DNA from: Pseudogymnoascus verrucosus
Lineage: Eukaryota
NCBI GenBank assembly: GCA_001662655.1
Contig: KV460226.1
Length of the DNA: 64,000 nt
Reading direction: 5' to 3' (one strand)
Shown here piece by piece: positions 13,801-53,730 of this stretch (its first letter is position 1; each line of letters starts with the position of its first letter). The notes beneath the pieces are model-generated. The model had not been told where the DNA came from, made no database searches, and was given only the letters and a program-made list of their open reading frames with translations. Position numbers and translations under genes: made by a program.

Positions 13801-14082
13801 AAGATGACCATGCAGGCACTTCCGCGGAAACCAGACCGTATTTGTGATAGGGGCTACTCATAGAGGGAGGGAGGAGAAGGCCGGAGCTGCCTTGCAAACG
13901 TGTAGTATTTACAGTATGTCGTATTATATGGTACAGTATAGTACAGCTCTCCTCGTAGCGTGACCTTGACGTCCATGGAGAAACTCAACATGAAAAGGCT
14001 ATGACAATGTGGCGTCTTCAACGACCTATACATGACTCATGATCGGCATCAGTTCGATAACCTATTGGCCAGGAAGTCCAGC

Positions 14083-27648: not shown

Positions 27649-28166
27649 TCAAACCTTCTTCTGTGCCTTTTCAATCATCTCCAAATACCCAGCATCAATA
27701 ACAGTCAACCCTGCCACCCCTAGCTCCTCCACCGTCTTCGTATCAACCACCAGCGTCGCAATGAAAGTCGCCGGTTCCGTTGTGGATGCGTTCTCGCTAA
27801 GCCTGTGATGGCATCCCGGATGTTCCTTAAAGCTGTCTCCTGGTCCCAGAAGCTGCATTGGTTCCTTGTTCATCCCGTTGAGCATATGGCCAGTTAGGAT
27901 GTGGGCGCTCACGAATGCACCGGCATGAGTATGTGGTGGTGTGGATCCGTTGGGAGGCTGCGAAATTAGGTAGGACACGATGGATTTTCCAGGAGCGTTT
28001 GGGATGAGGTTGTTGTAGAGGCATTTGACGTCCGCCTGAGGGCGACTGGGGAAGGGTCAGTTAGAAGAAATGCTGGAGAGAGGCAAGAAGAGGAGAAAGA
28101 TGCGCCAACTAACCTAGGATCATACACTGGTTCTGTTGCTGGAAGTTCTGGCTTTGAAGGCGCCAT
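27649..28166 (-). CDS. Small cupin-fold protein
   Basis: Two exons. PPNGSTPPHTHAGAFV...GPGDSFKEHPGCHH..SENAS matches the two cupin motifs with HxH...H metal ligands. Confidence 0.8.
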
Positions 28167-29460
28167 TTTGGGAATAGGGAGATGGATATTGATTTTTGTG
28201 CAAGTCAGTCTCGGTTTTCGTTGTTTAAACTGAGGTCAGTCCTAAGCATGCGTATTTATTAGGATCAAATATTTACTCCATCTCAGCAAATCCACGACTA
28301 TACGCTGCTTTCAGCCATCAAAACTTGCCACCCTCGAGATGGATGAATCGAATTCACGAAACTAACAAGTCTGTGCAACCGATGACGACTTATGAAACCT
28401 GCAGTTCTGCCAAGCTTCGCCACATAAGAACCTTGTGACTAGGAAAATAGATCTGCAGCCTATAACATAAAGTCTGTGCTACTTGGGATCTTGCAAAGCG
28501 AGCCTACAAGCCATGGATATGCAAGACATCTATCCCGGCACAACGGCAAATAGTTCCAAGCAACAGCATAGATGGCGGGATGGTTATGATTACCATCTCG
28601 CCATCCATGCGTGTTGCTTGAGCAGGTGGGGTTGTCCGGCTATGCAAGCTGAAGAATATTCCCGAGGGTCCCTGCACATCCTACTTCGAACATATCGCTT
28701 GCAGTTGCATCATGTTAAGTCAACAAAACAGAGCATATTAAATCGGACAACACACTGGAGACTCGAGGAAGAAACTATGCACGGTTGGGGCGAGAATGGC
28801 GATCTCGGAGACACAGTTGGTTGCTTTTGATGTTGCACTAAAGGATTCCTGTATCACTATGCACTATGCATGTACACAAATGTGATAAAAGTTCAGCTCT
28901 CAACTTGCACTCAATTACGCCACCAAAATTCCTATTCGATGTTTCACCGCTATTGATCTGCTGGTGCAATGCTGCATCGTATGGCCTATTCGATATTCTC
29001 GCCGAGACTGTACATGTACAGAGATATTCTCAACCAGCATTCAATTACGCCACTAGATGCCTATCGCAACCAATCTGCTGGTGCAACAATATACCGTGCT
29101 GCCTGTCCGATTCTCGCATGGATTCCTCTCGCACACAGTTCCACAAGGTCATGCCAGAGTATGACGAACAGTCCGTAGACCACAACAGGTTCCATGAATA
29201 TGTAGCTCGCAAAGTTGAACTTTTATGTTGGCCAAATGTTTCAGACACAAGCTATTGCATTGGTGGTTATTTGTGGGTAGTTCATATGGGTCTGATCTCA
29301 ACGGCGATTAAGAGATAACGTAATTTTGACAAGACCTGTGATCTGACGAAGTCTTTTACTTTTTAAAGCATCGTCAAATATCTCCATTTGTATTTGTTTC
29401 TGAATTCAGCTTTCACAACCCGATAAGTCCCTGAAAACAACTCGCCACTCCTCATACCTC

Positions 29461-31371
29461 TCAACACTGCCCACCCATTCGCCAATATTCCATCTTCGAT
29501 AAGTCTATAACGTCCACTCCATCCTTTCCCCGCCAATCATCACCAAAGAACTTCTTGCGGGCATCTATCTTTGAAATCTTCCCGTTTACTGTCAAAGATA
29601 TTTCTTCACCCTCTTTGAGCCAGTAGATTACTGTCGGTTGCTTGAATAGCATCAAACCAGTCTTTTCTGTCAGGTCATGTCGAAGGGCGTCGAAGCTCGG
29701 CTGCTCCAATGATGGCTTGATTTTCACAATAGCAGAAACGCGCTCCTTGTATTCCGTGTCGGCGAGAGGTAGGGAGATGGCGTCGGCGATGTAGGGGAGA
29801 GAGAGAAGCGCGCTTTCGACTTCGCCTGTATGGACGGTGAAGCCCCAGAAATGCAGAACTATAAGGGTTAGAAGTATTTTGAATACGGGAGAGTGTTCGA
29901 ACCATCTATGTTTGCCCGGCCGTGGAGAACATAAGTATCCCCGACCTTTTCTGCACAATCTCCGCTCTTGAAGTAGCCCTCTGAATCGAAAGCCTTCTCG
30001 GTCAAGGTTGGATCATCCGAAATGTATCTGGTTCGTTAGCACTCTGGTCCTGCATGCATGTCATTATCCATACCGTGAGAACATCGAAGGAGCCTTGAGT
30101 CGCATCTCCCCGTCCACAAGCTTCACCTCAACTCCCGTCACGGGTGGTCCGATCGAGGACTATCAGTCAGTCAATATCTCAACGCAGAGTGTGAGGACGT
30201 TATCATTACCATATCAGTATAGTCGGGGTTTTCCCATCTCATGCTGCATATCAAGGTGACCTCTGTAGATCCATATAGGTTTAGCAATGGCTTTCCACGA
30301 CGGAGTTTCGTCCATCTCTCTTGCGTATGTGGCGAAAGGAGTGATCCCGAGACGCCCGCAACCTTAACATCTATCATTCCTTGAACATAAATCTCTGTCT
30401 CTGCGGGGGGTAGCACAGCGATATGGTCGTCAAAGTACTTTGCGAGCCTGTCATAACCAGTAGGTGCAACGTCAAATACGCTGACACCCCCTTGCCTAAT
30501 GCGTTCCCAAAACCATTCGGGGTTGAAGACGCCTCCACAAGTTTCTCTAAATATTATCAGCATTGAAGGTGTCAACGAGCCACAAAGTCTTACAGGCAAG
30601 CTCCAGACATCAAACTTGGAATGATGCCGAAAATCCCTCCCATCCAATTGCCTGGTTTTTGGTTGAGAAACACATCCTTTTCTGTCATCTGCCACGTTCC
30701 TATTCGCTCTCGTGCGGACGCAAGAAGAGCTTGGTAGGAATGAACCACGCCTTTCTGATTTCCAGATGTGCCTGATGTGAAGAACAATGTACCATTCTGA
30801 GTAGACAGGTTCTTGGTGCTAACGCTTGTTTCGTATTCGAGAGATGTCGAGCTGTCGAGGCAAGATGTCTGTATTTCCACGAAAGGGAGTTTGGGGTTGA
30901 CTCCGCTGTCACTGCTGGCACACAAGACTTTGATTGCCTGGGCTTTCTCGGCGAGCGCGGGGGCATATAGCAGGGCTAGAGGCTTTGCGAGCTTGAAATA
31001 GCGCAGAACATCCTCTGGCTTGACAACGATGGCTATGTTTGAGTAAGCATAGTGCATCCCACGAAAATAGGCTACTTACATTGTGCTGACATGGCGGCAC
31101 CGAGGGAGAAGATGGTGAGCATCGATACCACATATTCCAATCCCGGAGGAGCTATAAGAAAGATAAATTTGTCTTGGCCGGCGGTTTCCCATCCATTCTG
31201 AAGCAGCTCATCCTTCAATTTATCGCGGAGCGAAGAAACTCTCTGCAGCAATTGTCCGGCTGTGGCAGTTTTCCCCGTAGAATGGTCCCTAAGAGCAATC
31301 CTATCGGGGTGTTGCCGCGCATGTTGAATTAACTCCAGAAACGGAGACACTGGAGGAAATAGAAGCTGCAT
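29461..31371 (-). CDS. Standalone AMP-dependent ligase (ANL superfamily, acyl-CoA synthetase-like)
   Basis: Multi-exon. P-loop FFTSGTSGNQKG, NLYGSTE, FDSEGYFKSGD, GRAN.D and terminal TVNGKISK. No carrier or condensation domain is present. Confidence 0.9.
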
Positions 31372-32119
31372 ATTAACAAGATGATTTTCTGACACGAGGC
31401 AAAAACAAGAAGCACTCTCAGGTTGATGTCCAGTATCTCAGATATACCAAGTAGAAACCAAGTCAAGATTCTGTATGGAAGAAAATGAGCACAGCTACTT
31501 TATGTTTCGTCCCCGGGTCGAAAATGTGAACCAATGCTGCAAGTCCCTTTGTCTCAGCGGAGAACACACCTCAACTACTCACTAAGGGTGCAGAATTGCT
31601 CTTTCGACGCGGAACTAAGACGGAATAAATTCGACCGGCGGTGTAGGTCTATCATATCTTTCTATCGTTTCACTGCATCTTCGAGGACCTGGAGCCTCTG
31701 TACTTGCCCCGAATTACCCTTTCCATTCCCGTCCTCCCGAGGTCAGACAGTAGCTGAGATGCTTGGAACGGTAGGTATCGACGTCTGATGTTCCACTTTT
31801 TAGGAAATATTGCCATAGCAATAACCTAATTGGGTATATTCGTTCCGAACCTTGTTCGGGTAGTGGGGCCCTTATAAAAGCCACTAGTAGTGATCTGCAC
31901 AAGGGTGGATACGAGCAGCTGTACAATGGGACCCCGGTTCACACCCCTGTTTAGAGATCCGGGGGCTAGCGGCTTGGGCTCCGGAAGAGAGCCCCCAGAT
32001 GATATTTACACCTCTGTTATAAGGCAGATAGCAACCCAATATTCTCAATCGGGAGTACCTTTATCTACGGTTCCATTGCTTCTAAATTGATTGAAATTTG
32101 ATCACGACTTGTTGGTAAA

Positions 32120-33540
32120 ATGGCAAAAGTCCGACCTTCCCCGATTGAGTCCCTAGAGGCCTACAAGCACATTTCTCCAGACTCAGGGGAGCCAACTGCG
32201 ATCCACCCCAACTACAACCCCAAAATCAAGGCCCATGTTCCCCAGGACCTCCCTCACAAAGAGTTTACACCCCCGAAAGACCGGGGGTCCTACGCTGATC
32301 CAGAGAAGAAGGCATTGTTCGCTGTTGCGACACCCGCTGATGTGACTGAAAGCATTGGTATCTATCTCCAGAACGCAGAACCGACATAGACTGATCTTCT
32401 CCAGGCACGGAGCTCAAGAATGTTCAATTGAGCCAATTAGATACGAAGCAGTTGGATGAGCTTGCTGCACTTGTCAATGAACGCGGTGTGGTCTTCTTCC
32501 GAGACCAAGACTTGACAACTGAGAGGCAAGTTGAGATCTTTGAGCATTTTGGAGTTTTGGACACGCACCCCACTCAAAAAGTACTTGGCCGCATCTCTTG
32601 ACCCGGTAGAGAAGGAACTTTCTAACACTTGCCAGGATACGAAGCATTTCATTGTTGGAGGAAACAATGCAGATTGGCGGACGCTTTTGAAGTATACTCC
32701 ATGGCCAATGTCGGACTTCCATTCTGATACGAGCTATGAGATCAACCGTATGCCCCCTCTACCTATTGTCAACTTCCTCTCTGACGAAAGACAGCCCCAA
32801 GCTATTCTCTCCTTCGTATGGAGGAGCATCCTGCTGTTGGCGGAGACACGGCGTGGGTGTCTGGGTATGGTCTTTATGATGAGCTTAGCCCTCACATGCA
32901 AAAGCTTCTAGAAGGGTTGCATGCTGTGCACACCTCGCGTTTGCAATACGATACCTTGATTGTGAGCTCTGACCTTCTGTTCCCGTCCCTCGCTACCAGT
33001 AATATCTTGACACCACGATACACGAAGTAGCTGACTTTTCCATCCAGGACTACTTCGGCGATGAACCCCGCCGTCCACCAATGGATACACATCATCCTGC
33101 GATTCGCACGCACCCTGTCACTGGCCTAAAGTCGCTCAATGTCAATCTCGTTTACTGCACTGGCTTTGCCGAGTTGAAGAAGGCGGAGTCAGATGCTCTC
33201 CTCCAATTCCTGACCCTGCTTATTCACAGTTCGGATGACCACTATGTCAGATGGAAGTGGCAACCAGGAAGTATCGCCTTATGGGATAACGTAAGCCTTC
33301 TACGATAACTATTTGATCGATACTGACAGGCGTGTAGAGATCAAGTCTTCATCGGATCATACCAGGAAACTACCAGTCCGGTATAAGGAGAGGTATCAGA
33401 ACGACTGTCTTTGGGGAGAAACGTGAGTCCCGTAATTCCAGGTCTGGGAGAACCACCTAACATAAACAGCATTCTATGACCCGAAGAGTGAAGGCCGGAT
33501 GCAGAGAGAAGAGCGACTTATTGCTGAGAGCAAGAAATGA
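32120..33540 (+). CDS. TauD/TfdA-family Fe(II)/2-oxoglutarate dioxygenase
   Basis: Motifs RGVVFFRDQDL, DFHSDTSYE (HxD), GGDTAW, HPAIRTHPVTG, RWKWQPGSIALWDN|RSSLHR and RTTVFGEKP. Multiple introns. Confidence 0.92.
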
Positions 33541-33939
33541 TCTCGGCATGGCGTGCCTACAAATGGTACAAAGCTTCTGGTCGTAATCCATAGTTTTGAT
33601 ATCTAGCCATAGATTGAAAATCTTATATAGCTCAAACAAAGATTAACATATCTTCTATTCAATGTCAAATGGAAATTCCGTGCAACTTCATGCGTCTCAT
33701 CGGTACATGTACTCCATTATCTATCCAAGCTATTCTAACCGCGCACAAAAGCTTCGAAAACATCATCATTCCAAAAAAAAAATCCATTCTATTTAGCGCC
33801 GTACTGCCACAGTTTTCACACATAAACAAGAGTCCCCCAAACTAAACACGAGGCACATTGTACTGGCCGTAAATGTTACATCGTCCATTAATTTTCCCAA
33901 GATACAAATACGCAGTGCCCACCAGAAATAATCTTACAG

Positions 33940-36259
33940 TCAGTATGAATACTTCTCCGTCGTAGAAATCATAGGGAGAATGGTGAGTGCCTGTGTTGAC
34001 ACAGCAAAGACTAAGAAAATATCAGTCATCTGAAGCCACTGAAATCGTGCACGATATCGAATGACATACCTGGTACGACCCAGAAACTTGCAAGATAACC
34101 CTGGCGTATGAGTGACTGGACTGCCTCAGGTAGCAGTGCCACGACAGAAGAATCATCCAAGATTCTCTGAATAATTTGATCCTGGTACTGGTCAGGGCTT
34201 TTCTTTACGAAGAAGGTGAGGCATGGGACCAACCTTTGTATATCCTGGCACTTCGGTCATTATTTTCTGTAAGGTGGCGTGGAACTGGTGCTTCAGAAGC
34301 CCCGAGCTAATGCTTATGCCCAGAGCGACACCGATTTGTTGACTCATATAGTACATGCTGATGGCTGTGGCCATATATTGCTTCGAAGAACACTGGTACA
34401 AGCCGATGAACTGTGCGGAGAGGGCTATGCCACCAAAGAGACCGAATGGGAAAGTAGTCATGATTCCCTCCCAGACGCCTAAATGAGTTTCATGCATAAG
34501 TTAGCTTCTATTTGAGGTTGCTTTCAAAGCCAAATCCTTGTCACCGCGGAGACAGGAAACGAGGGTAGGTGATATCGAGCTTGAACTTTGACATACCAAT
34601 AGTATGAGGCCATCGGATAAGGATAGCCACCGAATTGGCGATACAGAAGAACAGCGAGATAATAGAAAGCTTTTTGTATGTTCCAAATCTAAGGATAGAT
34701 ATTAGTCATTGAGTCGATCTCAAAAGGGACGATAAACCAAGCCCACCTTTTGATTATTTGTCCTGCGAGCAGAGCGCCGATTGCATTTCCGATACTGAAA
34801 GGAGCTGTACGCCCCCCACCTTCCGCATCTGAAGCTCCTCGAGTATTTGCAAAGTAAGGTGCTATTTGAGAAACGAACTATGCATGGTTTGTCAGTAGAG
34901 TAAATAGAGAATGTAAACCTTCACATACCCCATAACCACTCGCAACGATAAGTAACTAGCAAACAAGTCAGTATGCGCGTTGTGACCCAGGAGAGAATTC
35001 AAATACCTGTCCAGCACAAAATGCACCAATCTCGGTTTTCAAAAGCTTTAAAGGCATCAAGAGCTCCCTGTTACCGGGAAAGGTCTCGAAGACAAGAAAC
35101 GCTAATGTGGAGATTGCGCCAATAACAATCAAACTCTGAACAAGAGGATGCGACCAAGATAGCGAGCCCTGTAAATCAATTACTGCCAAAAGCGAGGATA
35201 TCGATATGGCAATAGTAATCGCCCCCGGGAAATCGAAGGCCAGGACAGGTTCTTCTCGTTGCGGTTCCTCTTCCTGTTCTACTTTTGGACACATAACTTC
35301 GAAACTCTTTGCCATAAGCAAACAAGATGCAGCTGCGATTGGGACTTGGCCGAGAAATAACCTTCAGAAACGTTAATAGTAATTCGTAGAATAAATGCGA
35401 CCGGGTGCCTACCATCTCCATCCAATTGCTCCAGCGAGAAAACCGCCAAGCGGACCACCCCCTGAGAGTCCAATTGTTGAGGCTATGTTGACGTAACTTC
35501 GTAAAACCGCGACATCCGAAGAGTCAGCGAGCTCTATTTTAAAAAGTCAGTTGGCATAGCTATCTTAGAAAAGAGGGTTACGAACTCACCTGTAATGATA
35601 ATAGAAGCCAGAGAGACCATCCCCGATGCCCCGCAGCCGGCAACAACCCTGCCCAAAATCACTTGCCAGTAAGTTTGACCAATTCCGCTATTCTCACGTA
35701 AGTACGTTTGAAGGGCAAACAGCCATCTAGGCCATCACTTACCAGAGTGTGCTACCAATACAAAATGTACAGTACGCCACCAGTAGAGGGCGTAAGCTAC
35801 CATAACTATCACTTAATCGTCCATACTATTGTGGTCTGTTAGTGAAATTTCCTGGAGTCTGCCTTCAAGAACGGAGTCTATCAAACGCTTCAACAACTCA
35901 CCAGCGGCAGAGTTACGCAATACCCCATCGTGAAACTCGTCATCATCCATGATGAGTTCTGGAGGCTATTAAATCGCGATGCTATCGTCTCATGAGTTGC
36001 CCAAACAAGAGAGGTATCCGCGTATGCCAAGAGGATTCCTGCAAAAGTTCATCAGATCAAAATGTACCAACAAGGCGAGCAAGAACCACAGCCTACCGAT
36101 AAGTGCTCCAACCTGCCATAGTCTAAATATTTTACTGTTCTTCTCCGGTTCGGGTTTTGCTGGCTTTGGCAGTAACTGGGTTGTTTCGTCCGCAGATTCT
36201 TCACCAAACCCGCTCATGCTTGACCTTCGAGATAGCGTACAGGAACTTGAGGAAGACAT
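33940..36259 (-). CDS. MFS drug/metabolite transporter (DHA2/Vba-like)
   Basis: Many exons. Motifs YGRLSDSYG, GRVVAGCGASGM, GGPLGG..GWRW, FDFPGA and GVALGISIS. Confidence 0.88.
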
Positions 36260-36670
36260 CGGAAGCCGGTCCTTTGGGATAGTATGCCAGCGCTTGATAT
36301 GCGTGTGAAAGAAAACAGCCTGGGTTCAACTGCGGGGTATGTGGCTGCAAGATGAGGAGTACGAGGATAATGAGAATGCACATGAATACTGAAAGGCGTC
36401 AAAGACGAGATAGCGAGAGGCGGATGTATAGGCGGCGAATCCCACAACCCAATCACGAATCTAAAGGAGCAGACTATGACGGAACCCCGGAAAGAGAATC
36501 TCCCTGTGCACGACCTACAGTAAAATAACCCTATTCGCTCTGTTCACGCACGGGCTCGTACGAATTCTTCTGGCGCCAAATTTTAGCTCACCCTCTGAAT
36601 GGCTCATTTGCCTTTGGTCTCACTTTAGGTCAAAAGCCGAGGGCTGAAGTTTGCCTCTCCCCGATCTGCT

Positions 36671-36940
36671 TCATATTGCAAGACAGGAGCTGAAGCCTAC
36701 TGCACCTCATCCTATGTCTCGCCTCATATTGAAAGACAAGAGCTGAGGTCTCCTGTGCATTACTGGTTCGGGTGGGATATACAGAGATCTATACTTTCGT
36801 GCACGTCACTTCTGTTTTTGTAATAATGGGCCGGGGTCTTTCCGGGGTCTTCGCTCCATTCGTAAAAGCATTGGCGGTGGGGCAGGTCTCATATTGTAAG
36901 ACAACAGCTGAAGGCTGGCGTACTACCCTATATCTCGCTG
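36671..36940. repeat. Three imperfect copies of TCATATTGnAAGACAnnAGCTGA in the MFS / 2OG-oxygenase divergent promoter
   Basis: Copies start at about 36671, 36724 and 36889. Copies 1 and 3 are also followed by CCTAT(G/A)TCTCGC. Confidence 0.85.
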
Positions 36941-37263
36941 CATTTAGTAACCTACCAAAAGAATTAATATTAACATGGTTAAAAAATACGTAAAATTATT
37001 TAAATTGATTTAATATGGTACTAGGTGACTTAATTTAAATGTTAATATTCTAATCAGGGTGGTGCAGGGGAGCTAGTTCTGCATTTCAGCCGCTTCATGA
37101 TTCCCCACCGACCCACTACATGTTATACCTGAGAACTGAGATATGATGCAAGAAAACGGTCTACTTAGAACAGACACTTCATTATCTTTCCAAACTCGAC
37201 GTGATTCTACCAAATCTTACACATTCAGACACGACAAAGCAGAATACGCATCTCTCAATCAAT

Positions 37264-38190
37264 ATGGCAAGCCACCCTTCAGACCCTGCCAATGGAGCCG
37301 CACTCGGCGGCGCTCCTATTGCCCAGATCTCGACCATCTCGCTGGCTCGGCTCCACAAGAAAGATCCCGCTGAGATTGCTCTCCTCAACAAAGTGTGCTC
37401 AGAGGCAGGCTTTTTTTACCTTGACTTTCGTGGAGATACGGAGAGCAAAGGTGTGCTTGCACATCTCTCCGACGTCAATACGGCAGTTGAGAAGTACTTC
37501 GACCAGCCCGGCGTGGCCAAGGCAGGGGACGCCAGGCTTGACATCAAACCTTCCCAGGATCTCGGATATAAGAGGGGCCGTGGCGGTGAGTCGTTTGAGG
37601 TAAGAATGCCCGACTTCTAATGTGGTAGATCCTAGCCATGGCATCTCTGCTGACCTAATGGAAATTAGATATCACGAGACGAAATTACATCAGATAGCGC
37701 TTCTATCTCGAAAATACCGGAGCTGTTCCAGCATGATTGGGCCAAGATCAGCAGCTTCATCGCTGGTTGTGACGAGGCTTGCTTGACGTTGCTCAAAAGT
37801 CTCTCGGAAGATTTCCTGCTGCACCACCGTGCCGATCACCCCAGCGACACTGGACTGAAATTTGTCCTGCACCCATCCCTGGCTCGGTTGTCAGACGTTG
37901 GCGAAAACCTACACACGGACAGCGGAACCCTGACCCTTCTGTTTTACAAGGATTGGAGCATCCATGCTTTTCTTCCCGACGCCGACAGATGGGCTTTCAT
38001 CCCGCCACCCCCGGAAGGTTGTACCCTGGTCAATGTGGCCGACACACTGCAGGCCCTCTCGGAGGGGAAGCTGCATTCACCAAAGCACAGAGTAACACAG
38101 CCGGTTGATGGCGCAAACAATCGGTACTTCCTCAGCTACTTCTTGAGGCCTGAAAACGGGTGGATCAATAAATGCAGCTCTACTAAGTAG
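37264..38190 (+). CDS. 2OG-Fe(II) oxygenase, IPNS/DIOX_N family
   Basis: TISLARL..GFFYL at the N-terminus. HTDSGTLTLL (HxD), LVNVADTLQALSEGKLHSPKHRV (distal His) and RYFLSYFLRP. One intron near 37600-37668. Confidence 0.92.
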
Positions 38191-38589
38191 ACAGGGCATG
38201 GGGATGGATGGGTTGGCCAGCATCCAAAGGAATGCATGTCGTGACAAAAATGTGATCTCTCAAGTCTTTAGCACCTAGAATATTACTTGTTGTTGAGAAA
38301 TTGGATAGAAGCATTATTACACTATACTAAAATTATACTTTCCTCTCCGTATCGAGTTTAAGACAGTTTTGTCTTGTGATAAGGCCAAAATAGCGATAAG
38401 GATGATAATATATTATGTGGTGTTGTTGTAAGCCATAGGAAGCCACATATCGGAAGCTCCGCTGATCATCGATACCCCTGTGACACTGAATACCGCGGAT
38501 CAGCTTTTGAGTATTGGGAATTGCATTTCCTAGAGAGCTGTCCAATTTCATTCATCGTACTTTGGGCACTCAATCAACCCCAACTCATC

Positions 38590-43269: not shown

Positions 43270-43842
43270 TAGTACTATAAGACTTTTTACCAGTGTTTAT
43301 CTCGTTGCATTTCTCAGTTTACTATTCGTTTGTGGAATTGGATTTTGGTATGACTTGACACATCGAAACTCGTCCTTGGGTCTTAGATAAATAACCCAAG
43401 ACGCCAGCCATCCCGTTCCACTGATCGTTTCTCTTGTCCAGGAAGCAGTGGTATCAATAGCCTGTGCGATGAAGAATACATATGTCAGTTCCTGAGTGCC
43501 ATGGGTGTCGCAGCAGCTTGATCCCCAGACTTGGCATACCATATCGCGCTTGGTGTTCGGATTATAAATTTCTCTCAGCTGCGTAGCCCTTATCAGCTAC
43601 TTTCATAATACAGTAAATATGACCACATCCCAAAACCCAAAACGAAGCATGTATAATAGTTAATGGAAGATGGCTATTGTCAATACCAGAGAAAATTCAA
43701 GAAAACAGCATCATTTGTCATTCGCGGAAATAATAAAGCCTAGCAATATTACATCACACTCGAATTTCTTGCCACCACTTCCACCCTTCCCCACTTTCTC
43801 TTCCCAGTAGCAGCATTCTGACTGCTGCTTCTATCCAAAAGC

Positions 43843-45997
43843 TTAAGGCTGTTCGTTGCCAACTGTTCCGTCCTCCCAGTCACTGAGAGGGAAGTACTCA
43901 ACGACCTCCGGGGGGTGCGTCTCATTCCCAACAACGCTCCCTCCAAAGGTAAGATACCCTTCCACACCTGGCCTATCAATCAATGAGAGCACTTCAGTCT
44001 GGTTCCCCATAACCCAAGCCTGTAATAGACGGGTTAGTAACTTTAACAGAGGACCAATTATCCACAAAAAGATGAAAACTCACAGAGTTCATGCCCCAAA
44101 CCATGTGAGGGAGAAGATGGCAGTGAATCATCCAAACACCTGGATGATCAATCCTGAGTCTCCAGGCTCTCCATGCCGAGAGTGTGCCATTTGGTGATTT
44201 TCCGCCGTACATATATAGGTTTGTAGTACTATCCAAAGATTAGTGCTGATGTTCTTGGTAAGACTCCCACCTAATGCCACGGAAGTAATTATCGGTGGAA
44301 TTCGGGGACATGGACGGGGATACATACTCTCTCCTAATGGGATGTCCTATAGAACTGCGCCATCTTGCCTCATTCTCCTCGCGGTTGTATACACCCTCTC
44401 CAGAACCCAAATCCCAATAATGGGCTCCGTGAGCGTGCCATGGGTGCGTCTCTGTCCCACCACCTGCAGAACCGGTGCCTTGGACCACAATCTCAATCAC
44501 CTCTCCTATATCTGCTGGGAAGGCATACGTGACCGGGTCCAAACCATCATGCTGGAGAGCGCGTTCCATGGATGGCCAGTTCGAACCGCCATCTTTGTAG
44601 AGGCTGACAAGATAAGGCTCGTGCACAAGACCTTCATTCCAGGTTTGACCATTTATTGTGTAGAGCAGGCCACCGCCTGGGATATCGAGATGAGATGTGA
44701 TATTGACTCTCCTGGTCACTTCCTCTGCGGTTGGGAAATCAAGTGCATTGTGTGATGCGGCAGGGTGTTTCGTGTTGTTGTAGGGGCGAAGCGAGTACTC
44801 TAGCCAGTAAGGGTCCGTTGGTGGCAAGGTGATAGGATCAGTAGCCGGGGGATAAACTTTAGGAGTCTTATCGGTGCTAGGAGGGCCGTAGTTGAGAACC
44901 GCGAAAGAGCGGGTAGGGGGTCCAAATTCGCGACTCTCCAGCTGTATATAGTAATATTGCTTTGCTGGCTTTTTAAGAGTGTCGATGAGGAAACTGAACC
45001 GTTGGCCTGGACTAACTTGCATAACATGGGTTGCAAATTTATCGGTATAAGCTCTATTCACTGTTAATTCCATTGGCAAATAGGATAGGCTGAGGAGACA
45101 TACCCTTCAGCTTCAATCACTTGGAGAGTCTCATGGCCCTCGATGGCCAGAATGTCAAACGATAATCCAGTTCCACCAATAAGTCTCAGTCTGTAAGTTT
45201 TCCCGGGTTCAACGTCGATGACGGACAACTCATCGTTGCATCGCGAGCCATCCGATGAGACGATACCACCACCTTTTCCGTTGATAAGTACCATTTCCTG
45301 GGCTCTCTCATATTCCATAGGGACGGCAAGCAATGCGTGCTCAATAAATTCATCTGTATCCGGGAAGACATCTTGTAGGAAGACGATAAGATCATCATCG
45401 TAGTGGTACGGGGGTTTATCTTTATCCTCAATCTGTCATATATCAGTACAAGAAAGCAGTGACTTAAGCGAATAGAAAAATGTTACTTACAATTAACGGA
45501 CCCGTAGCAGAGATAGCCTGGAGACCGACGTGCGAATGGTAAAAATATGTTCCGGCAAAACCAATTGGCACGTAAAGCTCATAATCAAAGAAATGGAACG
45601 GAGGAATTGGCCATTGGGCAGCCTGAGGAGTTCCATCAGAGAATGGAGCTGTTGCCATTGTGAGGCCATGCCAATGCTGTTTGATAGTTAGTTAAAGTGG
45701 CTACTGGAGTGGGTATAAGGAATCTGCGCGGAATCTCACCATGGTAAGGTTTTGAGTAGCAATATCATTGTAAACTCTAATCCAAACCGTCTGGCCTTCC
45801 GTGAATCTGAGAGCAGGCCCTGGACTTGTGCCATTGACAACCAAAATGTCTTTCTCTGGGACGCAAGACTGTTTTCTCGTCTCCTCGGTTACTCTGAGAA
45901 CAGCATCTGGAATAAAATCTGCACCATGAGTCGTTGTAGCAGCCACTCCGATCAACCCTGCCGCGAGGACTGGTATGAATGGGAGGAAGAAACGCAT
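43843..45997 (-). CDS. Secreted multicopper oxidase (AA1, fungal ascorbate-oxidase-like)
   Basis: Signal peptide MRFFLPFIPVLAAG. All four copper motifs are present: HWHG, FYHSH, HPWHAHG and HCHLLPHMVWGM. Confidence 0.94.
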
Positions 45998-47360
45998 CTT
46001 CAAAACTTCCAATAAATGGGAGGTGTCCTGAGAGAATTTGAGAAGGTTTGAGCAGATGAAGAACGCAGTGCAACAAATCAAGGCTTATATACCTTTGCCT
46101 TGCGTTTGGTTACAAGACACAACTATCCGACTCCCAAAGTCAGGACCAAGAAAACATGCACGCGGACAACTTGGGCCGGGGGGGTAAGAAACATTGTACA
46201 TCACACAATCCGTTGCGAGACAGTAGTATAGTTGCGAGTGAACCAGATCCCGAAATTCTCATCCTACGGCTGTGAAAATCTTATTCGTTTACGATTCATG
46301 AGGCGATCTACCCGTGCGGCCCAAACGTCCGTGTAGGGGAACTCGGGAAGAACCGTGCGGTTGACTGAGATTCAAATTGAAGCTTATAATTGGCTACGTA
46401 TCAGTTTGCGGGCACGAGATCCCTACGGAGACTTTTGGACCCTAGCGTATTGGTTAAAGACTCAACCTGGGTATTGTTGAGATCTGAGATCACTGCCGCA
46501 TCCGTTATCTTCGGTTCCACCTCAGCTAACATTTACGCAACTCCATTTCCTAGAAAAACAAATCCGTTTTCATCACCTGCAGATCTGGGTTACACTTCAG
46601 CTTTGTCTAGGTGCGCTATGAAGTGTTCATATTCATGCGTCTTGATCCAGAATTTGTTGATAGTTTTGGCTCAGCTTATGAGACATTCCCGGGGGGGTTT
46701 TTCCGGTGGTCTCACCACATTACACTACGAAAGCTATAGCTAGCAATAATACCCTAAATTGTTGTGTGGCTGGAACATAATATAACGTTTGCAGCGGAGG
46801 TATTCTAATATTGCTACGTGAAGCCTCAAGCTTTTATCTTTCCGAGACACAAGTCCAAAAGGGATAAGTTACTCGTTCTTAGCTCGGACGATTTACTCTA
46901 AGTAACCCTGAAGCATCGTCGTTCCCTTTTGGTGCCACGCCAGAGTACAGTCACACTAAACTTCCCTTTCTGGATAATTTCCTTCCTATCTAAGAAATCC
47001 ACGCTAAGCCGTACTCGTAGCTACTTTTGCAACTAAATTGTCCTATTTTGATGTGGTTCAGGGATATCCTAGTGAGTGCCCCGTTGGCTCCCGGATGGTA
47101 CCCGCGGTGGGGCTTCAGCCTAACTTTATGTCCCCGCTCGGGATGCTGACCCGATTAAAGAATGGGGACAGCTTTTGGTGTTTTCCCCTACCTTGACACA
47201 CCCCAATCCCGAAGCACCCGAAGCACGTGAGGGGTGGTGGCAGCCAGATTTTCGCGGAATTCTCAGTATCCGTATCAATGGCCATTCCAGCAAGAACTCA
47301 AGCTGGATCAACTCTCGATTGTTCTTACGCTGTCTCAACGTTCGACCGCCAATCGCCATT

Positions 47361-49047
47361 ATGGCTCTCCAGCTCTGGGAGGTTTGCATCTCAGCATTTT
47401 GCTTGGGCTGGCTGGGTTTATTTGTTTACAGAGCAGCATTAGCACCCTTGTCAAAACTTCCTGGGCCATGGTACAGCCGATTCTCTGATGCGATTCTCAT
47501 GTACAAAGAATTCACAGCTCATCGTCGAGTGTATATTCACGAGTTGCACAAGAAGTTTGGGCCTGTTGTTCGATTGGGTCCCAATGAGGTATCTTTTACG
47601 TCCGTGGAAGCTCTGAAGGAGATATACCAGAGTGGCGGGAGCGGATATGACAAGACTGAGTTTTACAACTTGTTCATACAGTATGGAATAAGGTGGGTAG
47701 TTGTAACGTATTGGGTCAAGGATCTGGTTAACTAAAGAAAAAGGACAACGTTCTCAACGCTGCAGAAACGAAAAGTGAGCTGCCTTTCAACCTTCATACA
47801 ATTCCCCCACTGACGAAAGCATAGCATGATCAAATGAAACGCTACATCGCGGGATCATATGCCAATACAAGCATTATGCATCCCGAGGTCGTAGATGGTA
47901 TTCAAGAACGAGTAAGGGCATTCTTAAGACAATGCGAAGAAGCAGAAAAGCCAGCCATAGATTTCTACGTAAGAATCGCCAATTGCACTTTCAGTGACAA
48001 CAAAATTGACTTGACTGGTGTAGGTTTATCTGCATTGTTTTGCCATGGATTGTGCCTCGTTCCATTTGCTCCATCCTCACGGAACCAAATCAATTGAGGG
48101 TAGAGATCTCCATTTGATGGAAGAGTATTCATTTGGCGACACATTGAGAAGTTCGTAGTCTCAAATCCTTCACGAGAAGCAGTTCTAACAGTATGGCAGA
48201 AAAGTTACTTCGATACCGTTTGCCAACTATGACACGTTGGCTGGATGAGACCTTCAAACAGAAATTGGAGTCGAAAATCGGCCAGTACGTAATAACGGCA
48301 TGCGAACAGACTGATTCCGGAGACCACAGTCTGGCGTACAAACTTAAGAATAGTAAGGCGGAATTCCAGCAAATGCAAGTCGCTGCGGAGTGCATGAACC
48401 ATCTTGCAGCGGGTATTGATACAACAGGTGACGCTTTGTGCTTCTTGATACATCAATTATCTCTACCCGGGAGTCACCACATCCAAGACAAACTTATTGC
48501 TGAACTTTCTTCCAACAAAGATAAAGCTCTTGATGACCTGCCATACTTGGAAGCAGTCATCAAAGAGGGTCTGAGGTGTTTCCCTCCCATTCCAATGTCA
48601 CAGCCGCGGTGTGTCCCCTCTGCTGGCCGCGTCATCGACGAATATTTTATTCCTGCAGGGGCTATCGTCAGCTGTCAGGCTTGGAGTGTCCATCAGTTAA
48701 ACCCGCATATTTTTGATCGGGGTGATCAATTTATCCCAGAAAGATGGCTTGATTCGAAGGCCGCCATTGAGATGAACAGGCTGTTTTTCTCATTTGGGGC
48801 TGGTGGGCGATCTTGCACAGGCAGACAGTATGTTTGCGACTTCCACTAACAGAACACTTACTAACAGAATACTAGTCTTGCAACGGTTGAAATGAAATGC
48901 CTGCTTCGTGAACTATATTCTCGATACAGGACTAGAATTGCCCCGGAAATGAAAGGGAGCATGGAATTGTATGACCAGGCAATTTCTACTCGGCCTTTCG
49001 ATCAGACTTGCTTATTGGTCCTTGAATCTATACCGCTGGAGCCCTGA
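47361..49047 (+). CDS. Cytochrome P450 monooxygenase
   Basis: N-terminal TM segment followed by PLSKLPGP. Motifs GPVVRLGPNEVS, AGIDTT, EGLR, PERW and the heme motif FGAGGRSCTG. Confidence 0.95.
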
Positions 49048-49308
49048 GTCCTCTACTGTGGGTTTGGAAAGCGGTTGACATGGCATATTAGCTTGTAGAC
49101 ATGAACGCGCGAAATAGACTGCGTCAGATATATAGAATCAATAGATCGGTCAAAAGGTTGATGTTAACAATTTGCATAATGGCCTTCTTTCTCGAGACTA
49201 TAACAAATGGTTACCATATTTTTAATTTAATATAATACGTATTTGCATCTCTTTCAATTCACGCAAAGACTTATGCCGAGATAATTCATCATTCACAATT
49301 GTATGCCC

Positions 49309-50740
49309 CTAATCTATCTGACACTCGATACAGGCCTCTGGTTCGCTCCCTCTCCAGATCTTCTTGATTCCCAAGCCACTCCTTGCAAGTAGTTTCCTCC
49401 ACTGACTTTCAGTCCTCTCCATCCCCCCCATTGGAAACATCGTGATATCCATAATTGCCTCTTGCATTGTCCCGTTCGAGTCTGGCAACACCACATCAAC
49501 CAACAGCAATTTGCTTCTTGGCTGCGTTTTTAACACTGGCACAATTTGCCCGAGAATGGTGGTGCAATCATCGTCACTCCAATTATGGAAAATATGGCGA
49601 TAATGATAGACATCGGCGTCTTTGACAGGTTGGGGAGTGAAGATGTCATAATTCATGAAATTTACTCCAGTTGGTGGAGTGGGCACAGCTTCAAATGTAG
49701 AAGGTAAATCTTGAACAATAAACCGTCCTTTGATCTGCGGGTTTCTTTGACGGACCTCGCCCACTAGATAACCCATTGTCAGTATTTGTATATTGTACGC
49801 ATGGAACAAGGCCGCAGCCTGCATATCTCCAGAATTGGCAAAGACGTGCTCATCAACGATTCAGACACAAAGAAAGTTCGCCTTACTGATGTGCCCTTGG
49901 CCCCCAGCAATATCCACAACCGCAATGTCTTCATCTTTCAGGTCCAACTTTCCAAGCTCAGCACCCCATGGATAAGCATCCAGGGCGTTATGTGACGTCA
50001 TACCAGCAACCATATTGAGGGCTCGATCGGGGTGGGAGCCTAGCCAGGTCCAGAGCTCCTCCCCGTAGGCCCATTTGAAAGGTGTTCCCGTCTCTTTAGT
50101 GGGCGCTTTGTACTGCTTCTCTGCCAATGTTTTTGGCATTGCCATGATCGAAGGAATGAGATCGAAGAATACGAAGTTGTTGAATGCGCGGTGGTCGGGG
50201 TGCAGATATGGTTTCCCGAGGGAAGTGAGAATGAAACCTGGGCCTCTAGGGCCCATGGATTCCACAAACAGGTTTGCCGCTGTGAGCTGACGGAATATAC
50301 GGACTACACAAGAGTCAGTAAAGAACCTCATTAAGGACGCGGCAAAAGGGAATATTCACTAATGATTATTTCATCGGCTTCAGTGGACTCCACAATTTCC
50401 GCCAGGGAAACTTCCTTTCCTCCTTCGAACTTCTCCCATAGTTTAAGTTGAGACACGATCTCAATTGAAACACTGACATTGACCTGCAACAATAGGTTAC
50501 TATATAAGCCTTTTTCCTGTTTCAGGGACTTCGCCCACTTACTTGAAATATCCGAGGCCAAACTTCTCCATTAGGCTCTTCCAAAGAATTGAGAAGCTTT
50601 CTAGCCTCGTGCTGCAGCTTTCGTCGAGCAACATGAAGGTCACCTTGAGCTGCAGCTGCTGTGTCAAAGCTAGCAGCCGCTTCATTTACACCTTTCACTA
50701 AGTCGGCAATTTCTGACGGAGACGTATATACAGTCGACAT
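49309..50740 (-). CDS. SAM-dependent O-methyltransferase (Methyltransf_2 / OmtA-like)
   Basis: Motifs VVDIAGGQGH, FIVQDLP, YDIFTPQPVKDAD, RHIFHNWSD and GMERTESQW. Confidence 0.92.
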
Positions 50741-52249
50741 TTTGACAATGAAGCTTCGAGTCAAACTCAATATAGATTCTGGGACGTAGAGAAATTAATG
50801 ATCAATACTGGTATGTTGGTTTTCTTCCCTCCACAAGCACACTTTCCAAGGGCCGCGCTCATCACGTGTTCATGTAGGCCTTCACTTAAAACGGGAGCTA
50901 CCTTTCGCGCACAATTCAACGTATTACTTCCGTATAGCTGCATGTAGTGGGGCTATTGCTCCTCCAAGCTACTCCAAGGCCCTCCGGAGCTGAAAAGCCG
51001 ATACGCGGCGGAGCCATAACGGGAAATCCCTATTGAAACCCAAGGATGCCTGTCTCTGCCTCTACATTATTGTTTTTGTAATGCATCTCAACACTTTGTG
51101 TCCCTGTTGTGTACTAATCGATTGCATAAAGCCGCATCTCAGCACCAAAATGAATATACTTCTGAGGTCCACACTTAATGATCAGTACTTGTCTCACATC
51201 GCGGGCAATGCACCGACTCCCGTCTGCTGGGGTTGCTAGCGCAGCGCCAAAAAGTCCCCATAATGTACAAGTTGGAGAAATGGGGATGCACAGGCCCGCC
51301 CCAAGTCTGTGGGGCCGTGACGCCATATAGTGTTGAAGATACTGTACCATCCAACCTTAGTCGCTTAATATGCAATATTAAAAAAGTAGAGCTGATCTTC
51401 ATGATTTTGGAGCTGAAAAGCTGTGGGGTCTAGATCCCACGTCACATACAGGTGAAACCAATATTGCATGTAGGCATTATAGCAAAATGCACGCCTCGAT
51501 ATGTAACGGACAGCTATGGTAAGACAATAAATTAGGAATGCATATGTGTATGTGCCTCGGCCTAACTGGCCGAGGAGCATATGCAGGTCGGGGTGGTTGG
51601 CCTATAACATATACCTTTGAACTTGCAGAAAGCGGAACCTCTGTGCGACTTTCAGGTGGCTTTTTGGCGTATTAATTCCCGTTTTGAATGAGCCGTTGGG
51701 AGATGTCTCGGAGAAAACGCACTTAAACAGCAGCGCTGTGACTGTGTACGCTTTGCTTGCATATGAATCTTGTTTTAGAGCACGCTGCATGAATTTAAGG
51801 GATATTCCTATCATTCTGTGAGACCTAGGCAAGCTCTCCGCGTGTGGGTCATCCTCTCCAAAGCTAACGGGCCGGGAGGTGCAGTTGCACGGCTTTGTGA
51901 GTTGATAGGGCCCGGATAGTCTTTTATTGAGTAGGGCAGCGTATGGACCCTGTTTCAAGCGCATCTGATAGCCTCAAGTAGGGTCCATATTACCCCTCCA
52001 ATGGAAAGATCGGACGCATCTGGACACGACGAGTTGTCTGTATTGGGTCAGCTCAGGATATCTCACCGCCATCTGCTGGACCTCGATTATTCTCCACCTA
52101 TTTGACCTCTGTGCCGATTCGAAAAAACACTGAAGTTATCAGAACACGTGCCTGTGAGAACATCCTACTCATTGCGATTCACCATCGTCTGGCTTCACAA
52201 AGTAACGAGCGACTTCAAATCTACTATTCATCACCTTCTCAATAGCAAA

Positions 52250-53730
52250 ATGGACAGAGAACAGAGGATAGCGCAGCATAATGCTATCAAAACGCAACTC
52301 AAAACTCTCACCGATGCTGTGAATGCCTACTCCGCTACGTTTGAGAAGAACTCCTCATCCGACGACCTTGCGGCTATCGGCGAAATCTCACAATGCCAAG
52401 TCACGATGACTGAGAGCGTGAAGCAGATGCAAAGCGCTATCTATGGGCCATTGAATATGGTTATGTTGCATTATGAAGAGGTAAGCCTTTACATTCCTAC
52501 TACAAAGCAATGGCGAGAGCCGGACCTGATCTTGGATGGTGAAAGTAGTGTTTCCGTTCAAGCTCGCTTAGAACACTGCTGGAGATGGGTGTTTTTGATA
52601 TTCTGCCCGCTGATGGCAGTGAAATGTCCGCGGAGGAACTGGCTAAGAAGCTAGGCGTTGACGAAGCTCTTCTCGGTTTGTTATAAATGAAGCAGTGGGT
52701 TCGTAAGGTCGGGGCTAATGACACAAAGTTCGTCTGATGCGCATTGTCATACCTACATTCTTCGAAGAACCACGCCCAGAAGTTTACACTCACACGCCGA
52801 ACTCCAGAGTCTACTTGGAGCTTCCCTTGCGGGCCAACTTCAAAATGATGTATGAGAATTTGGTATTATTTTCAAAATAGATTAACCAGTTCTAACCTTC
52901 TTCAGGTACGACGAGACTTGCTTCGCGAGCATGAAGATGACCGAATTCTTCAAGAAAAATGGGTATATCAACCCCGACTCTCGGAGTAACAATCCCTACA
53001 CCTACGCCCATGACACTAAAGGCCTAAATATGTTCGAATTCCTCCTTCAGAACCCTGAGCGTTTCAAAAATTTCAACGATGCGATGCAAGCTCGTTCTTC
53101 CCAAACATCCCTTCCCTACGACTTGTTCCCTTTCAAAAACAAATTAGGAGAGGTGCAGACTACGGATGAGACTGTTCTGCTGGTAGATGTTGGCAGCGGC
53201 ATAGGCCAGGCTACGCTTGCCATTCGGGAGGCTTGTCGAGATGTAAAGGGGAAAATCGTCATGCAGGATCAGAAGGAGGTTATTGAGGGGATCGCAGGTC
53301 CGTTGCCGACGGGTGTGGTGGGAATGGCGCATGATTTCTTCAAACCGCAGCCAGTCAAAGGTACACTCTCCTCGCCCTATAATCAACTAATGGACTCACG
53401 AACCTGACAATTCTAGGTGCCCTCTATTATTACATCCACCGCTGTCTTCACGATTGGCCAGACTCCGATTGTCTCTTGATTCTGCAACATCTCGCTGCCG
53501 CGATGGAACCTGGCGTCTCGCGCATTTTGATCTCTGAGATTGTGATGCCCGTTGGACACGTCGATATCCAAACAGCGTGGTCGGATATTAACATGCTGAC
53601 ATTCAGCGGGGTGGAGCGGAGTGAAAAGCAGTGGGTAGACTTGCTGGAAAATGCTGGATTGAAAATTGCGAATATGCATGGCGATGATGGAGGATGCTAC
53701 TTCCGGGTATTGGAGGTTGTTCATAAGTAA
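52250..53730 (+). CDS. SAM-dependent O-methyltransferase (Methyltransf_2 / OmtA-like)
   Basis: Motifs LVDVGSGIG, MQDQ, HDFFKPQPVKG, CLHDWPD and GVERSEKQW. Confidence 0.93.

Follow-up and report, generated by a model that had tools for sequence, protein, structure and literature searches.

Small-molecule pathways that start from amino acids and are centred on dimetal oxidases of the HDO family, enzymes with a haem-oxygenase-like (HO-like) fold, are known in bacteria. According to the available portions of PMC10764440, the HDOs BelK and HrmI are co-encoded with the Fe(II)/2-oxoglutarate (Fe/2OG) oxygenases BelL and HrmJ and the paired enzymes act in turn on a free amino acid on the route to nitrocyclopropyl-alanine, after which, in the case of belactosin, ATP-dependent ligases form the amide bonds. 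The flcABCDE operon of Pseudomonas aeruginosa (fluopsin C) is induced by copper excess and likewise starts from an amino acid; as described in the accessible sections of PMC13653836, it has two HDO-type enzymes and combines the HO-like FlcD, the Fe(II) enzyme FlcE and methyl transfer with a linked exporter (efflux pump). In the part of a 2026 mini-review on HDOs that is available, the family is put at over 10,000 members, ‘in a myriad of bacterial species’, and neither ‘eukaryot’ nor ‘fung’ (other than in ‘fungible’) occurs in that text. The locus described here, at 27649-53730 of a 64,000-nucleotide stretch of contig KV460226.1 of the fungus Pseudogymnoascus verrucosus (GenBank assembly GCA_001662655.1; the whole stretch is called the window below), is a fungal form of such a system, in which the enzyme architecture is new and the gene cassette recurs. 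On balance, we favour the reading that it is one bipartite, copper-responsive biosynthetic cluster without a polyketide synthase (PKS), nonribosomal peptide synthetase (NRPS) or terpene core.

The original prediction, made from the sequence alone, placed 11 tailoring- or transport-type genes here, several in divergent pairs, with no core enzyme among them. A Pfam scan of the 27-54 kb section (70 stop-to-stop open reading frames (ORFs) of at least 80 aa, out of 111 listed over 25-56 kb) agrees with this description. All 11 genes were found at the places predicted, with matches to Cupin_2, AMP-binding, TauD, DIOX_N/2OG-FeII_Oxy, Haem_oxygenas_2, COesterase, three Cu-oxidase domains, p450 and, in two genes, Methyltransf_2, while the transporter matched the MFS family below threshold. 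Four divergent pairs are present: ligase/TauD, MFS/2OG oxygenase, multicopper oxidase (MCO)/P450 and the two O-methyltransferases (OMT1/OMT2). PKS, NRPS, terpene cyclase, dimethylallyltryptophan synthase (DMATS) and isocyanide synthase families had zero matches among the 70 ORFs, and the same five had none among 51 flank ORFs picked out of 98 listed at ≥100-110 aa. The flanks carry housekeeping-type genes (upstream Mtr4, chorismate synthase and LipB; downstream an AATase-like gene and an AA9 gene). The borders of the cluster are also those of a low-GC island (28001-54000), in which all thirteen 2-kb windows have a GC content of 0.450-0.487, compared to 0.56 in the adjoining windows; overall GC is 0.471 in the cluster region vs 0.532 and 0.531 in the flanks, and GC at third codon positions (GC3) runs from 0.47 to 0.615 in all ten cluster genes and from 0.615 to 0.73 in all seven flank genes.

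Scanning metagenome contigs with the HDO alignment gave 80 loci, corresponding to 55 distinct groups at 95% DNA identity, and named genomes were compared through protein searches, from locus-tag distances and from contigs of equal size. Two modules can be distinguished: module A (ligase-TauD-MFS-2OG-HDO, often plus the esterase) and module B (MCO-P450, probably with both OMTs). Module A keeps its colinear order on contigs of Leotiomycete-like type as well as in named genomes. In five close locus groups the HDO is 56-66% identical to the window HDO, and in all five the 2OG gene lies 560-650 bp upstream of it. MFS comes next after 2OG in L001, L002, L005 and L008, and the full order ligase-TauD-MFS-2OG-HDO is colinear in L001 and L008. 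L005 has MFS-2OG-HDO, L002 has MFS-2OG-HDO-esterase, and L003 and L004 have 2OG-HDO-esterase; the esterase is thus downstream of the HDO in L002-L004 and not in L001, where a different AMP-ligase is found. HDO and ligase orthologues occur on contigs of equal size in 11 sources, separated by 3-4 locus tags in Chlorociboria, Hymenoscyphus albidus, Drepanopeziza and Oculimacula. For module B, the distance between P450 and HDO is 3 tags in Pseudogymnoascus sp. WSF 3629, sp. 23342-1-I1 and Venustampulla and 2 tags in VKM F-4513 (where HDO and esterase share one gene model); in Pseudogymnoascus VKM F-4515 the P450 is 7 tags from the ligase, matching the order in the window, and in Stipitochalara P450 and HDO are on contigs of equal size. 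The order HDO-esterase-MCO-P450 is common to Pseudogymnoascus and Venustampulla, and in two Hypocreales the P450 adjoins the ligase (Aphanocladium) or is 2 tags away from it (Torrubiella). Evidence for co-localisation of OMT1 and OMT2 comes only from colinear locus tags of Pseudogymnoascus destructans. Module A is therefore widespread, with module B added to it in some lineages, and the cluster is a genuine, conserved, bipartite unit, for which we propose that module A is an old cassette and module B a lineage-specific extension.

Orthologues of the ligase (64-66% identity) and P450 (68-74%) were also identified outside the Leotiomycetes, in Aphanocladium album (P0154/P0134), Torrubiella hemipterigena (P0157/P0135) and Periconia (P0138). 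In a quick tree (56 rows, omitting locus groups with HDO pieces summing to <450 aa; a careful tree search is unfinished), the window HDO pairs with that of Venustampulla within a Helotiales group. Together with the low-GC island, these placements hint at horizontal movement of the cluster.

Expression of the colinear genes was followed in the copper-stress data of P. destructans (File S1 of PMC12113139; seven samples with the chelator BCS, six controls and eight with copper overload). The ten genes from ligase to OMT2 are expected to correspond to VC83_08517-08526, because the five-tag spacing of two anchors, 08519 (MFS) and 08524 (the P450 orthologue), equals the spacing in the window. Counts exist for nine of these tags, and every one of the nine is listed as higher in copper overload than in control (logFC 1.3-4.6): VC83_08517 (2.50), VC83_08518 (1.84), VC83_08519 (4.31), VC83_08520 (1.30) and VC83_08521 (4.56) in module A, and VC83_08523 (3.42), VC83_08524 (1.61), VC83_08525 (1.62) and VC83_08526 (2.29) in module B. 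Among the flanking tags, 08514, 08515 and 08529 are not listed as changed, 08530 is slightly down, and 08516, 08527 and 08528 have zero counts. Spearman correlations over the 21 samples run from 0.68 to 0.88 within 08517-21 and from 0.74 to 0.98 within 08523-26; the genes are co-regulated in two blocks, which match the two evolutionary modules. In the accessible text of PMC12113139 only the MFS gene is named, among seven reciprocal genes, and no cluster is described at this position; the CRC cluster reported there (VC83_01834-01838) is a different locus. VC83_0852x tags were found in the main text of no paper.

The compositional island, the conserved order elsewhere, the spliced transcripts of a relative (described below) and the copper co-regulation in P. 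destructans show that the genes are grouped beyond chance. The proposal of a genuine cluster without a canonical core is borne out by the second and fourth of these; its author had been ready to give it up were the genes neither co-expressed nor co-conserved, and what was found is a conserved order and, in a relative, co-regulation by copper.

Several observations nevertheless weigh against a single cluster. Module B is absent near the HDO in L001, where 10 kb of downstream sequence is visible, and in L003/L004; no orthologue of MCO, P450, OMT1 or OMT2 lies beside the HDO in any metagenome locus, and in Oculimacula, Tricladium, Calycina and Rhynchosporium the nearest P450 homologues (≤58% identity) are on other contigs. 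L005 has no TauD piece where about 1 kb of TauD is expected, and the ligase is likewise not seen there. Copper withholding splits the modules: with BCS, 08523, 08524, 08525 and 08526 rise (logFC +2.92, +3.84, +1.58 and +1.79), 08517, 08518, 08520 and 08521 are flat (not listed) and 08519 falls (-1.51). Copper replicates scatter widely (3.3 to 295 for 08521), the tag expected for the esterase, VC83_08522, is at zero in each of the 21 samples, colinearity alone gives eight of the ten tag-to-gene assignments, and the expression evidence is all from relatives, none being from the organism of the window. A Zn2Cys6 motif is absent from every frame of the window (1-64000), so the cluster is without a resident regulator of the usual fungal kind, and no transcription factor was found in the island. 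Nor do the promoters share a k-mer (no 7-mer in at least six and no 8-mer in at least five of seven upstream regions); a spaced CGG pattern, present in four of the seven, was considered as a shared element and judged unconvincing.

Much of this would be expected if two independent units simply adjoined each other, module A being an HDO cassette and MCO-P450-OMT1-OMT2 plus the cupin belonging to another pathway or to general phenolic metabolism. Besides the loci and the four named Helotiales in which module B is missing beside the HDO, and the divergence of the blocks under copper withholding, such an arrangement would account for the low correlation between blocks (-0.36 to 0.64 over the 21 samples) and for the finding that the OMT merged with the HDO into one Hyphodiscus gene model (P0047) has just 30% identity to OMT1 and OMT2. 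It is, however, an unlikely explanation of the P450 and ligase orthologues that lie together in two Hypocreales, of the HDO-esterase-MCO-P450 order kept in both Pseudogymnoascus and Venustampulla, of the induction of both blocks by copper overload with positive correlation between them in the eight copper samples (0.43-1.0), and of the one low-GC island that they have in common. The single block of the original prediction stands as far as co-conservation goes, and has to be divided into two modules that differ in conservation and regulation.

The HDO gene (38590-40833, plus strand; module A) is intronless and encodes 747 aa, 100% identical to P0002. The protein matches PF14518 (Haem_oxygenas_2; 106.2 bits vs a cut-off of 28.9, E 2.3e-30), although the match spans only codons 243-430 of the 816-codon stop-to-stop frame (38383-40833), i.e. 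about residues 174-361 of the protein. Among 7999 candidates scored, 816 relatives were found at E ≤ 1e-3; the best 120 all carry PF14518 and are mostly ~745 aa long. Identity to the window HDO is 81-89% in Pseudogymnoascus spp., 81% in Venustampulla, 48-69% in other Leotiomycetes and 43-49% in lichen fungi, Orbiliomycetes, Morchella and Geoglossum. Seven residues are invariant across 89 sequences (E215, E216, H226, E290, H316, D320 and H326). An AF2 model of the protein is all-helical (pLDDT 81.9, pTM 0.76), places these seven residues on helices, and predicts a membrane helix (6-26), disorder to residue 68, an HO-like, putatively dimetal catalytic domain (~65-380), a linker (380-540) and a second HO-like domain (541-747).

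Sequence searches give no usable relation between this protein and the bacterial N-oxygenases RohS, HrmI and SznF (9pfx, 9n1a and 6vzy): phmmer of the HDO against the PDB had no match at E ≤ 1, and a profile of the 89 sequences reached RohS at E 1.9 only, in an alignment that takes in the E..H motif of RohS. (The same profile matched NDUFA5/B13 of complex I at E 0.016-0.03 over HDO residues 98-171, window 38881-39102, which is probably due to chance.) The HO-like fold is nevertheless common to all of them. With VIA, the N-terminal domain (65-380) matched RohS (Z 17.8, 258 residues aligned, rmsd 3.8), HrmI (15.8), SznF (14.8) and, in fourth place, FlcD (12.1), with 255-263 residues covered, and Foldseek returned HrmI, SznF and RohS at a probability of ~1 but with E ≥ 0.1. 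The three invariant His and three or four invariant carboxylates, putative metal ligands, fit the 3-His/3-carboxylate set given in the available part of the review, and the N-terminal domain may keep such a set. Unlike these enzymes, the fungal HDO has a membrane helix at its N-terminus, a conserved linker of 160 residues and a second domain of HO-like fold, in which no His is conserved. Folded alone, the latter (541-747) gave a pLDDT of 89.6 and VIA matches to HrmI (Z 14.2, 186 of 212 residues aligned), CtCADD (12.4), HamA (12.0) and TenA, the first 28 rows all being HO-like; Foldseek found HamA and BesC (probability 0.93-0.99, E ~0.14), and the ESM Atlas gave no usable match. In 29 diverse sequences no His of this domain is conserved at 90% and only R596, E604, E613 and R708 stand out, and a second dimetal site is unlikely here; the domain might instead stand in for the partner subunit of a dimer. 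The linker (380-540; window 39730-40200) has no family match and moderate model confidence only, and contains invariant W424, W449, W466, G468, M470, F471, G472, F474 and W485.

The wider contexts of the HDO show which partners are constant. Of the 55 distinct locus groups, 14 have a 2OG oxygenase gene no more than 3 kb from the HDO; 11 of these 14 also have an MFS gene and nine an ATP-dependent ligase. The nine ligases are of the ANL family in three groups (L010 having a glutamine-synthetase-like gene as well, 12933-14585, and a carnitine acyltransferase-like gene, 4312-4746), aspartyl-tRNA synthetase (AspRS)-like in five (L031, L065, L067, L069 and L080) and tyrosyl-tRNA synthetase (TyrRS)-like in one (L017:12679-13170). 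Such aminoacyl-tRNA-synthetase-like genes, which recur beside HDO-2OG-MFS in distant fungi, are divergent (yeast AspRS is matched with only 100 bits over 236 residues); they may encode enzymes that ligate, or spare copies that confer resistance to an amino-acid analogue. Across fungi, the HDO is constantly accompanied by a 2OG oxygenase, an MFS transporter and an ATP-dependent ligase of one type or another, and not by the P450/MCO/OMT set. The original prediction took the HDO and the ligase as scaffold-forming steps; both do belong to the most conserved part, module A, and the picture has to be widened to 2OG and MFS partners and a ligase that varies in type.

The fungal cassette repeats the combination of HDO, Fe/2OG oxygenase and ATP-dependent ligase seen with BelK/HrmI and BelL/HrmJ, with partner enzymes that appear to differ. 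BelL resembles isoleucine dioxygenase according to the accessible part of a review (PMC10764440); the fungal partner is a DIOX_N/2OG-FeII_Oxy protein, near ACC oxidases among natural solved relatives; the fungal cluster also has a second Fe/2OG enzyme, of TauD type, and an ANL ligase rather than an ATP-grasp enzyme.

Two features of the distant loci add to the points against the favoured reading. Their MFS genes are not orthologues of the window MFS, and in 14 other groups (L022, L023, L025, L027, L033, L034, L038, L043, L046, L049, L052, L054, L062 and L063; HDO 39-50% identical) the HDO lies beside an MTS-type methyltransferase gene (PF05175; 0.8-1.9 kb upstream of the HDO), with no 2OG gene and ordinary-looking neighbours. 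In the quick tree 11 of these groups form one clade (L043, L049 and L062 are not in the tree) and the 2OG-linked loci are scattered over others. As a whole clade sits beside the MTS-type methyltransferase without 2OG, the HDO family is not tied to one context; this pairing is a second conserved one. It is conceivable from such loci that the HDO cassette has a conserved, near-primary function, making a cofactor-like or housekeeping molecule, and that the cluster reflects mere local synteny around an old gene. The number of relatives, the full-length members among the 120 listed, which come from Leotio-, Lecanoro-, Orbilio-, Pezizo- and Geoglossomycetes and have identities of 43-49%, and the short-branched, species-like part of the quick tree are in keeping with this. 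We nonetheless regard it as highly improbable, given a patchy distribution (no Eurotiales or Sordariales names among the best 120 matches), low basal expression in P. destructans of genes that are stress-inducible, GC3 values of the cluster genes below those of flank genes, and partner genes that vary between lineages.

Gene models of the cluster were tied to the joints of X4, a sequence run 90-95% alike to the window that was taken as RNA solely because its contigs are spliced, and to reading by hand; a naive splice-site model over-spliced and was dropped, and several family and structure assignments were made on exon pieces rather than spliced full proteins. X4 contigs cover all 30 bins of 29300-49299, short stretches being skipped, and 11 of 15 joints have canonical ends on the right strand (GT..AG for plus-strand genes, CT..AC for minus-strand genes), the other four being offset by 1-2 letters. 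A close relative therefore transcribes and splices the ligase, TauD, MFS, 2OG, esterase, MCO and P450 genes, and the HDO lies on one unspliced contig (38391-40916).

In module A, the ligase gene (29461-31371, minus strand; six exons, 558 aa) has all five introns as X4 joints. Its product is an ANL-family protein of the MatB/ACSF3-like type (AMP-binding E 2.5e-41 on the full protein; AMP-binding and AMP-binding_C in frame 29461-31437), letter-identical to P0123, a 558-aa protein listed by NCBI under Pseudogymnoascus verrucosus. The TauD-family Fe/2OG dioxygenase gene (32120-33540, plus strand; seven exons, 363 aa) likewise has all six introns as X4 joints, and two exon frames match Pfam TauD (E 1.7e-12 and 2.6e-16; 32785-33308). 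For the MFS-type transporter (~33842-36259, minus strand) the model is incomplete, with many exons and approximate ends. Three colinear sub-threshold MFS_1 matches on exon pieces (E 0.0015-0.018, 14-18 bits vs a cut-off of 33.4) make it the weakest of the family assignments; an orthologous piece in L008 scores 19.3 bits to MFS_1, below the same cut-off. Three of its X4 joints are clean with CT..AC ends (34010/34070, 34180/34233 and 36037/36096), two others have letters between the sides, and the colinear P. destructans gene VC83_08519 is named an MFS transporter in the text of PMC12113139, as far as available. The 2OG-Fe(II) oxygenase gene (37264-38190, plus strand; ACC-oxidase/IPNS type, 285 aa, two exons) matches DIOX_N and 2OG-FeII_Oxy (37147-38190), and its intron (37600-37668) is supported by X4. 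Downstream of the HDO, the type-B carboxylesterase gene (41607-43269, plus strand; three exons, 516 aa) matches COesterase on three frames (41553-43269, best E 1.2e-39), with a first intron present in X4 and a second read from sequence; it is merged with the HDO in a single gene model, P0009 (86% identity).

Module B starts with the MCO gene (43843-45997, minus strand; six exons, 606 aa), laccase-like/ascorbate-oxidase-like, with Cu-oxidase, Cu-oxidase_2 and Cu-oxidase_3 domains (43994-46084, minus strand) and introns placed from X2 and X4 pieces. The cytochrome P450 gene (47361-49047, plus strand; six exons, 479 aa; Pfam p450 E 1e-34, 48148-48849) aligns end to end, at 94%, with P0146, which is VC83_08524 of P. 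destructans. Exons of both O-methyltransferase genes (PF00891) come from sequence reading only: OMT1 (49309-50740, minus strand; 397-aa model; Methyltransf_2 E 7.8e-17, 49309-49860) would be 418 aa if another acceptor, at 49826, were used, and OMT2 (52250-53730, plus strand) has a 415-aa, five-exon model (Methyltransf_2 E 1.2e-11, 53383-53730). At the other end of the locus, the Cupin_2 gene (27649-28166, minus strand; 149-aa model, exons 28114-28166 and 27649-28045, the first exon and its intron being predicted only; E 2.6e-7, 30.7 bits vs a cut-off of 27.2, 27649-28056) has a GC3 of 0.547, like cluster genes, and is a candidate member tied to the cluster by position and composition.

The X4 contigs over the HDO (38391-40916) and esterase (42255-43280) have seven and six gaps relative to the window, and P. 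destructans is absent from the best 120 near-length HDO matches though at the top of the P450 list. These gaps, the missing match and the zero counts of VC83_08522 may mean that the HDO and esterase genes are decaying in some relatives.

Among other ORFs, those at 28471-29318 and in further gaps had no Pfam match and translations that are not protein-like, and were rejected as genes. An AATase-like acyltransferase gene, of an acyl-CoA-using type, lies close to this CoA ligase cluster, 260 bp past OMT2 (53990-55483, minus strand); its flank-like GC3 (0.686) and the lack of a counterpart in related loci keep it outside. A questin-oxidase-like gene (4744-6046, plus strand; PF14027, E 3.6e-70) is found amid housekeeping genes 22 kb from the cluster.

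No cluster gene looks broken. In the predicted proteins both Fe/2OG enzymes show an HxD...H pattern, the MCO its copper motifs, the P450 the Cys-heme motif, the esterase GxSxG and both OMTs glycine-rich SAM motifs. The esterase and MCO have signal-peptide-like N-termini and look secreted. The best solved relative of the ligase is the malonyl-CoA ligase MatB (3nyq, E 6.6e-25), followed by acetyl-CoA synthetase, DltA and oxalyl-CoA synthetase, so it is probably an enzyme that activates a small acid, MatB likeness fitting a small acid better than an amino acid as substrate; ‘FDVA’ was considered as the amino-acid-binding motif of an A domain and rejected, as the full-length MatB alignment places that motif elsewhere. 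The TauD exon is nearest to true taurine/alkyl-sulfate dioxygenases (TauD 1gqw, 5e-15; PlaO1; AtsK). For the 2OG oxygenase, the top PDB rows are the designer proteins 8pjr (SAKe6AC-LB, 2.7e-8) and 7ona (SAKe6AC, 4.4e-8), over 20 query residues only, with the putative 2OG-Fe(II) oxygenase 3oox (2.1e-7) and ACC oxidases (~3e-7) as natural relatives, and the MCO is closest to a laccase-like MCO (7zn6, E 3.9e-38).

In the mechanism we propose, the HDO and the two Fe/2OG oxygenases would remodel, by oxidation, an amino acid or a small acid bearing an amine, the MatB-like ligase would activate a small carboxylate as adenylate or CoA thioester for conjugation, and the MFS transporter would export the product, which the secreted esterase may unmask. 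From module B, the P450 would hydroxylate, the OMTs methylate and the secreted copper oxidase act outside the cell. The substrate, every chemical step and the work of both modules on a single metabolite are inferred, and the product would be a small metabolite of amino-acid or small-acid origin that is both oxidised and methylated.

Some of these proteins would also suit an island for catabolism or detoxification, in which an external phenolic, sulfonated or ester compound would be taken up by the MFS transporter, activated with CoA and broken down or disarmed by the oxygenases, esterase, laccase-like oxidase and methyltransferases, or which would directly buffer copper and oxidative stress. 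The taurine/alkyl-sulfate dioxygenase likeness of the TauD exon, P450 relatives labelled ‘benzoate 4-monooxygenase’, ‘pisatin demethylase’ and similar, the apparent secretion of esterase and MCO, and induction by stress could all be read in this way. Two O-methyltransferases and an N-oxygenase-like HDO are, however, unusual in degradation; no ring-cleavage or dehydrogenase genes were seen in the Pfam scan of the 70 ORFs, and the aminoacyl-tRNA-synthetase-like paralogues, glutamine-synthetase-like gene and exporters that accompany distant HDO-2OG pairs look biosynthetic. We hold catabolism or detoxification to be decidedly unlikely and retain the biosynthetic cluster as the preferred reading.

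The fluopsin C operon is similar to the fungal locus in outline: both are small clusters without PKS or NRPS, the colinear P. destructans genes rise under copper overload, and FlcD is among the best fold matches of the fungal N-terminal domain. The fungal locus differs in having one HDO, no match to lyase families of FlcB/FlcC type among the 70 ORFs, two Fe/2OG enzymes, a P450 and a multicopper oxidase, and in its eukaryotic host. Isocyanide clusters of Aspergillus that respond to copper (A. fumigatus isocyanide chalkophores are mentioned in the accessible text of PMC12113139) likewise lack a core as usually defined and are linked to the supply of copper. Unlike them, the region described here has no isocyanide synthase domain by Pfam, and its response is to copper excess in module A and to both excess and lack in module B.

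A further, speculative step, doubtful as it stands, is to see in the locus a fungal counterpart of fluopsin-type chemistry, in which copper excess would trigger production and export of a small N-oxygenated, methylated, metal-binding compound, the key step falling to a dimetal N-oxygenase that is anchored in the membrane and, with its tandem HO folds, pseudo-dimeric, and HDO + 2OG oxygenase + ATP-dependent ligase + MFS would be a widespread, unrecognised fungal core. If so, the aminoacyl-tRNA-synthetase-like genes, in those versions that have them, would be signs of products that act as amino-acid antimetabolites. A nitro-cyclopentane amino acid reportedly made by Aspergillus wentii was considered as a possible HDO product, and no support for this was found.

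The original prediction did not recognise the locus as a characterised cluster, and searches of the open full-text literature turned up neither a paper on this cluster nor a characterised fungal HDO. Rule-based cluster finders key on core enzymes and would be expected to overlook this locus, along with related ones in Leotiomycetes, lichen fungi, Orbiliomycetes and other groups. The copper response provides a concrete condition for a product search, and was not read as that of a cluster by its authors in the available text of PMC12113139; it connects the locus with the way copper is handled in the genus to which the agent of bat white-nose syndrome belongs. The HDO enzymology found concerns bacteria only; a conserved, expressed fungal HDO with a new two-domain build would open a eukaryotic branch of the family.

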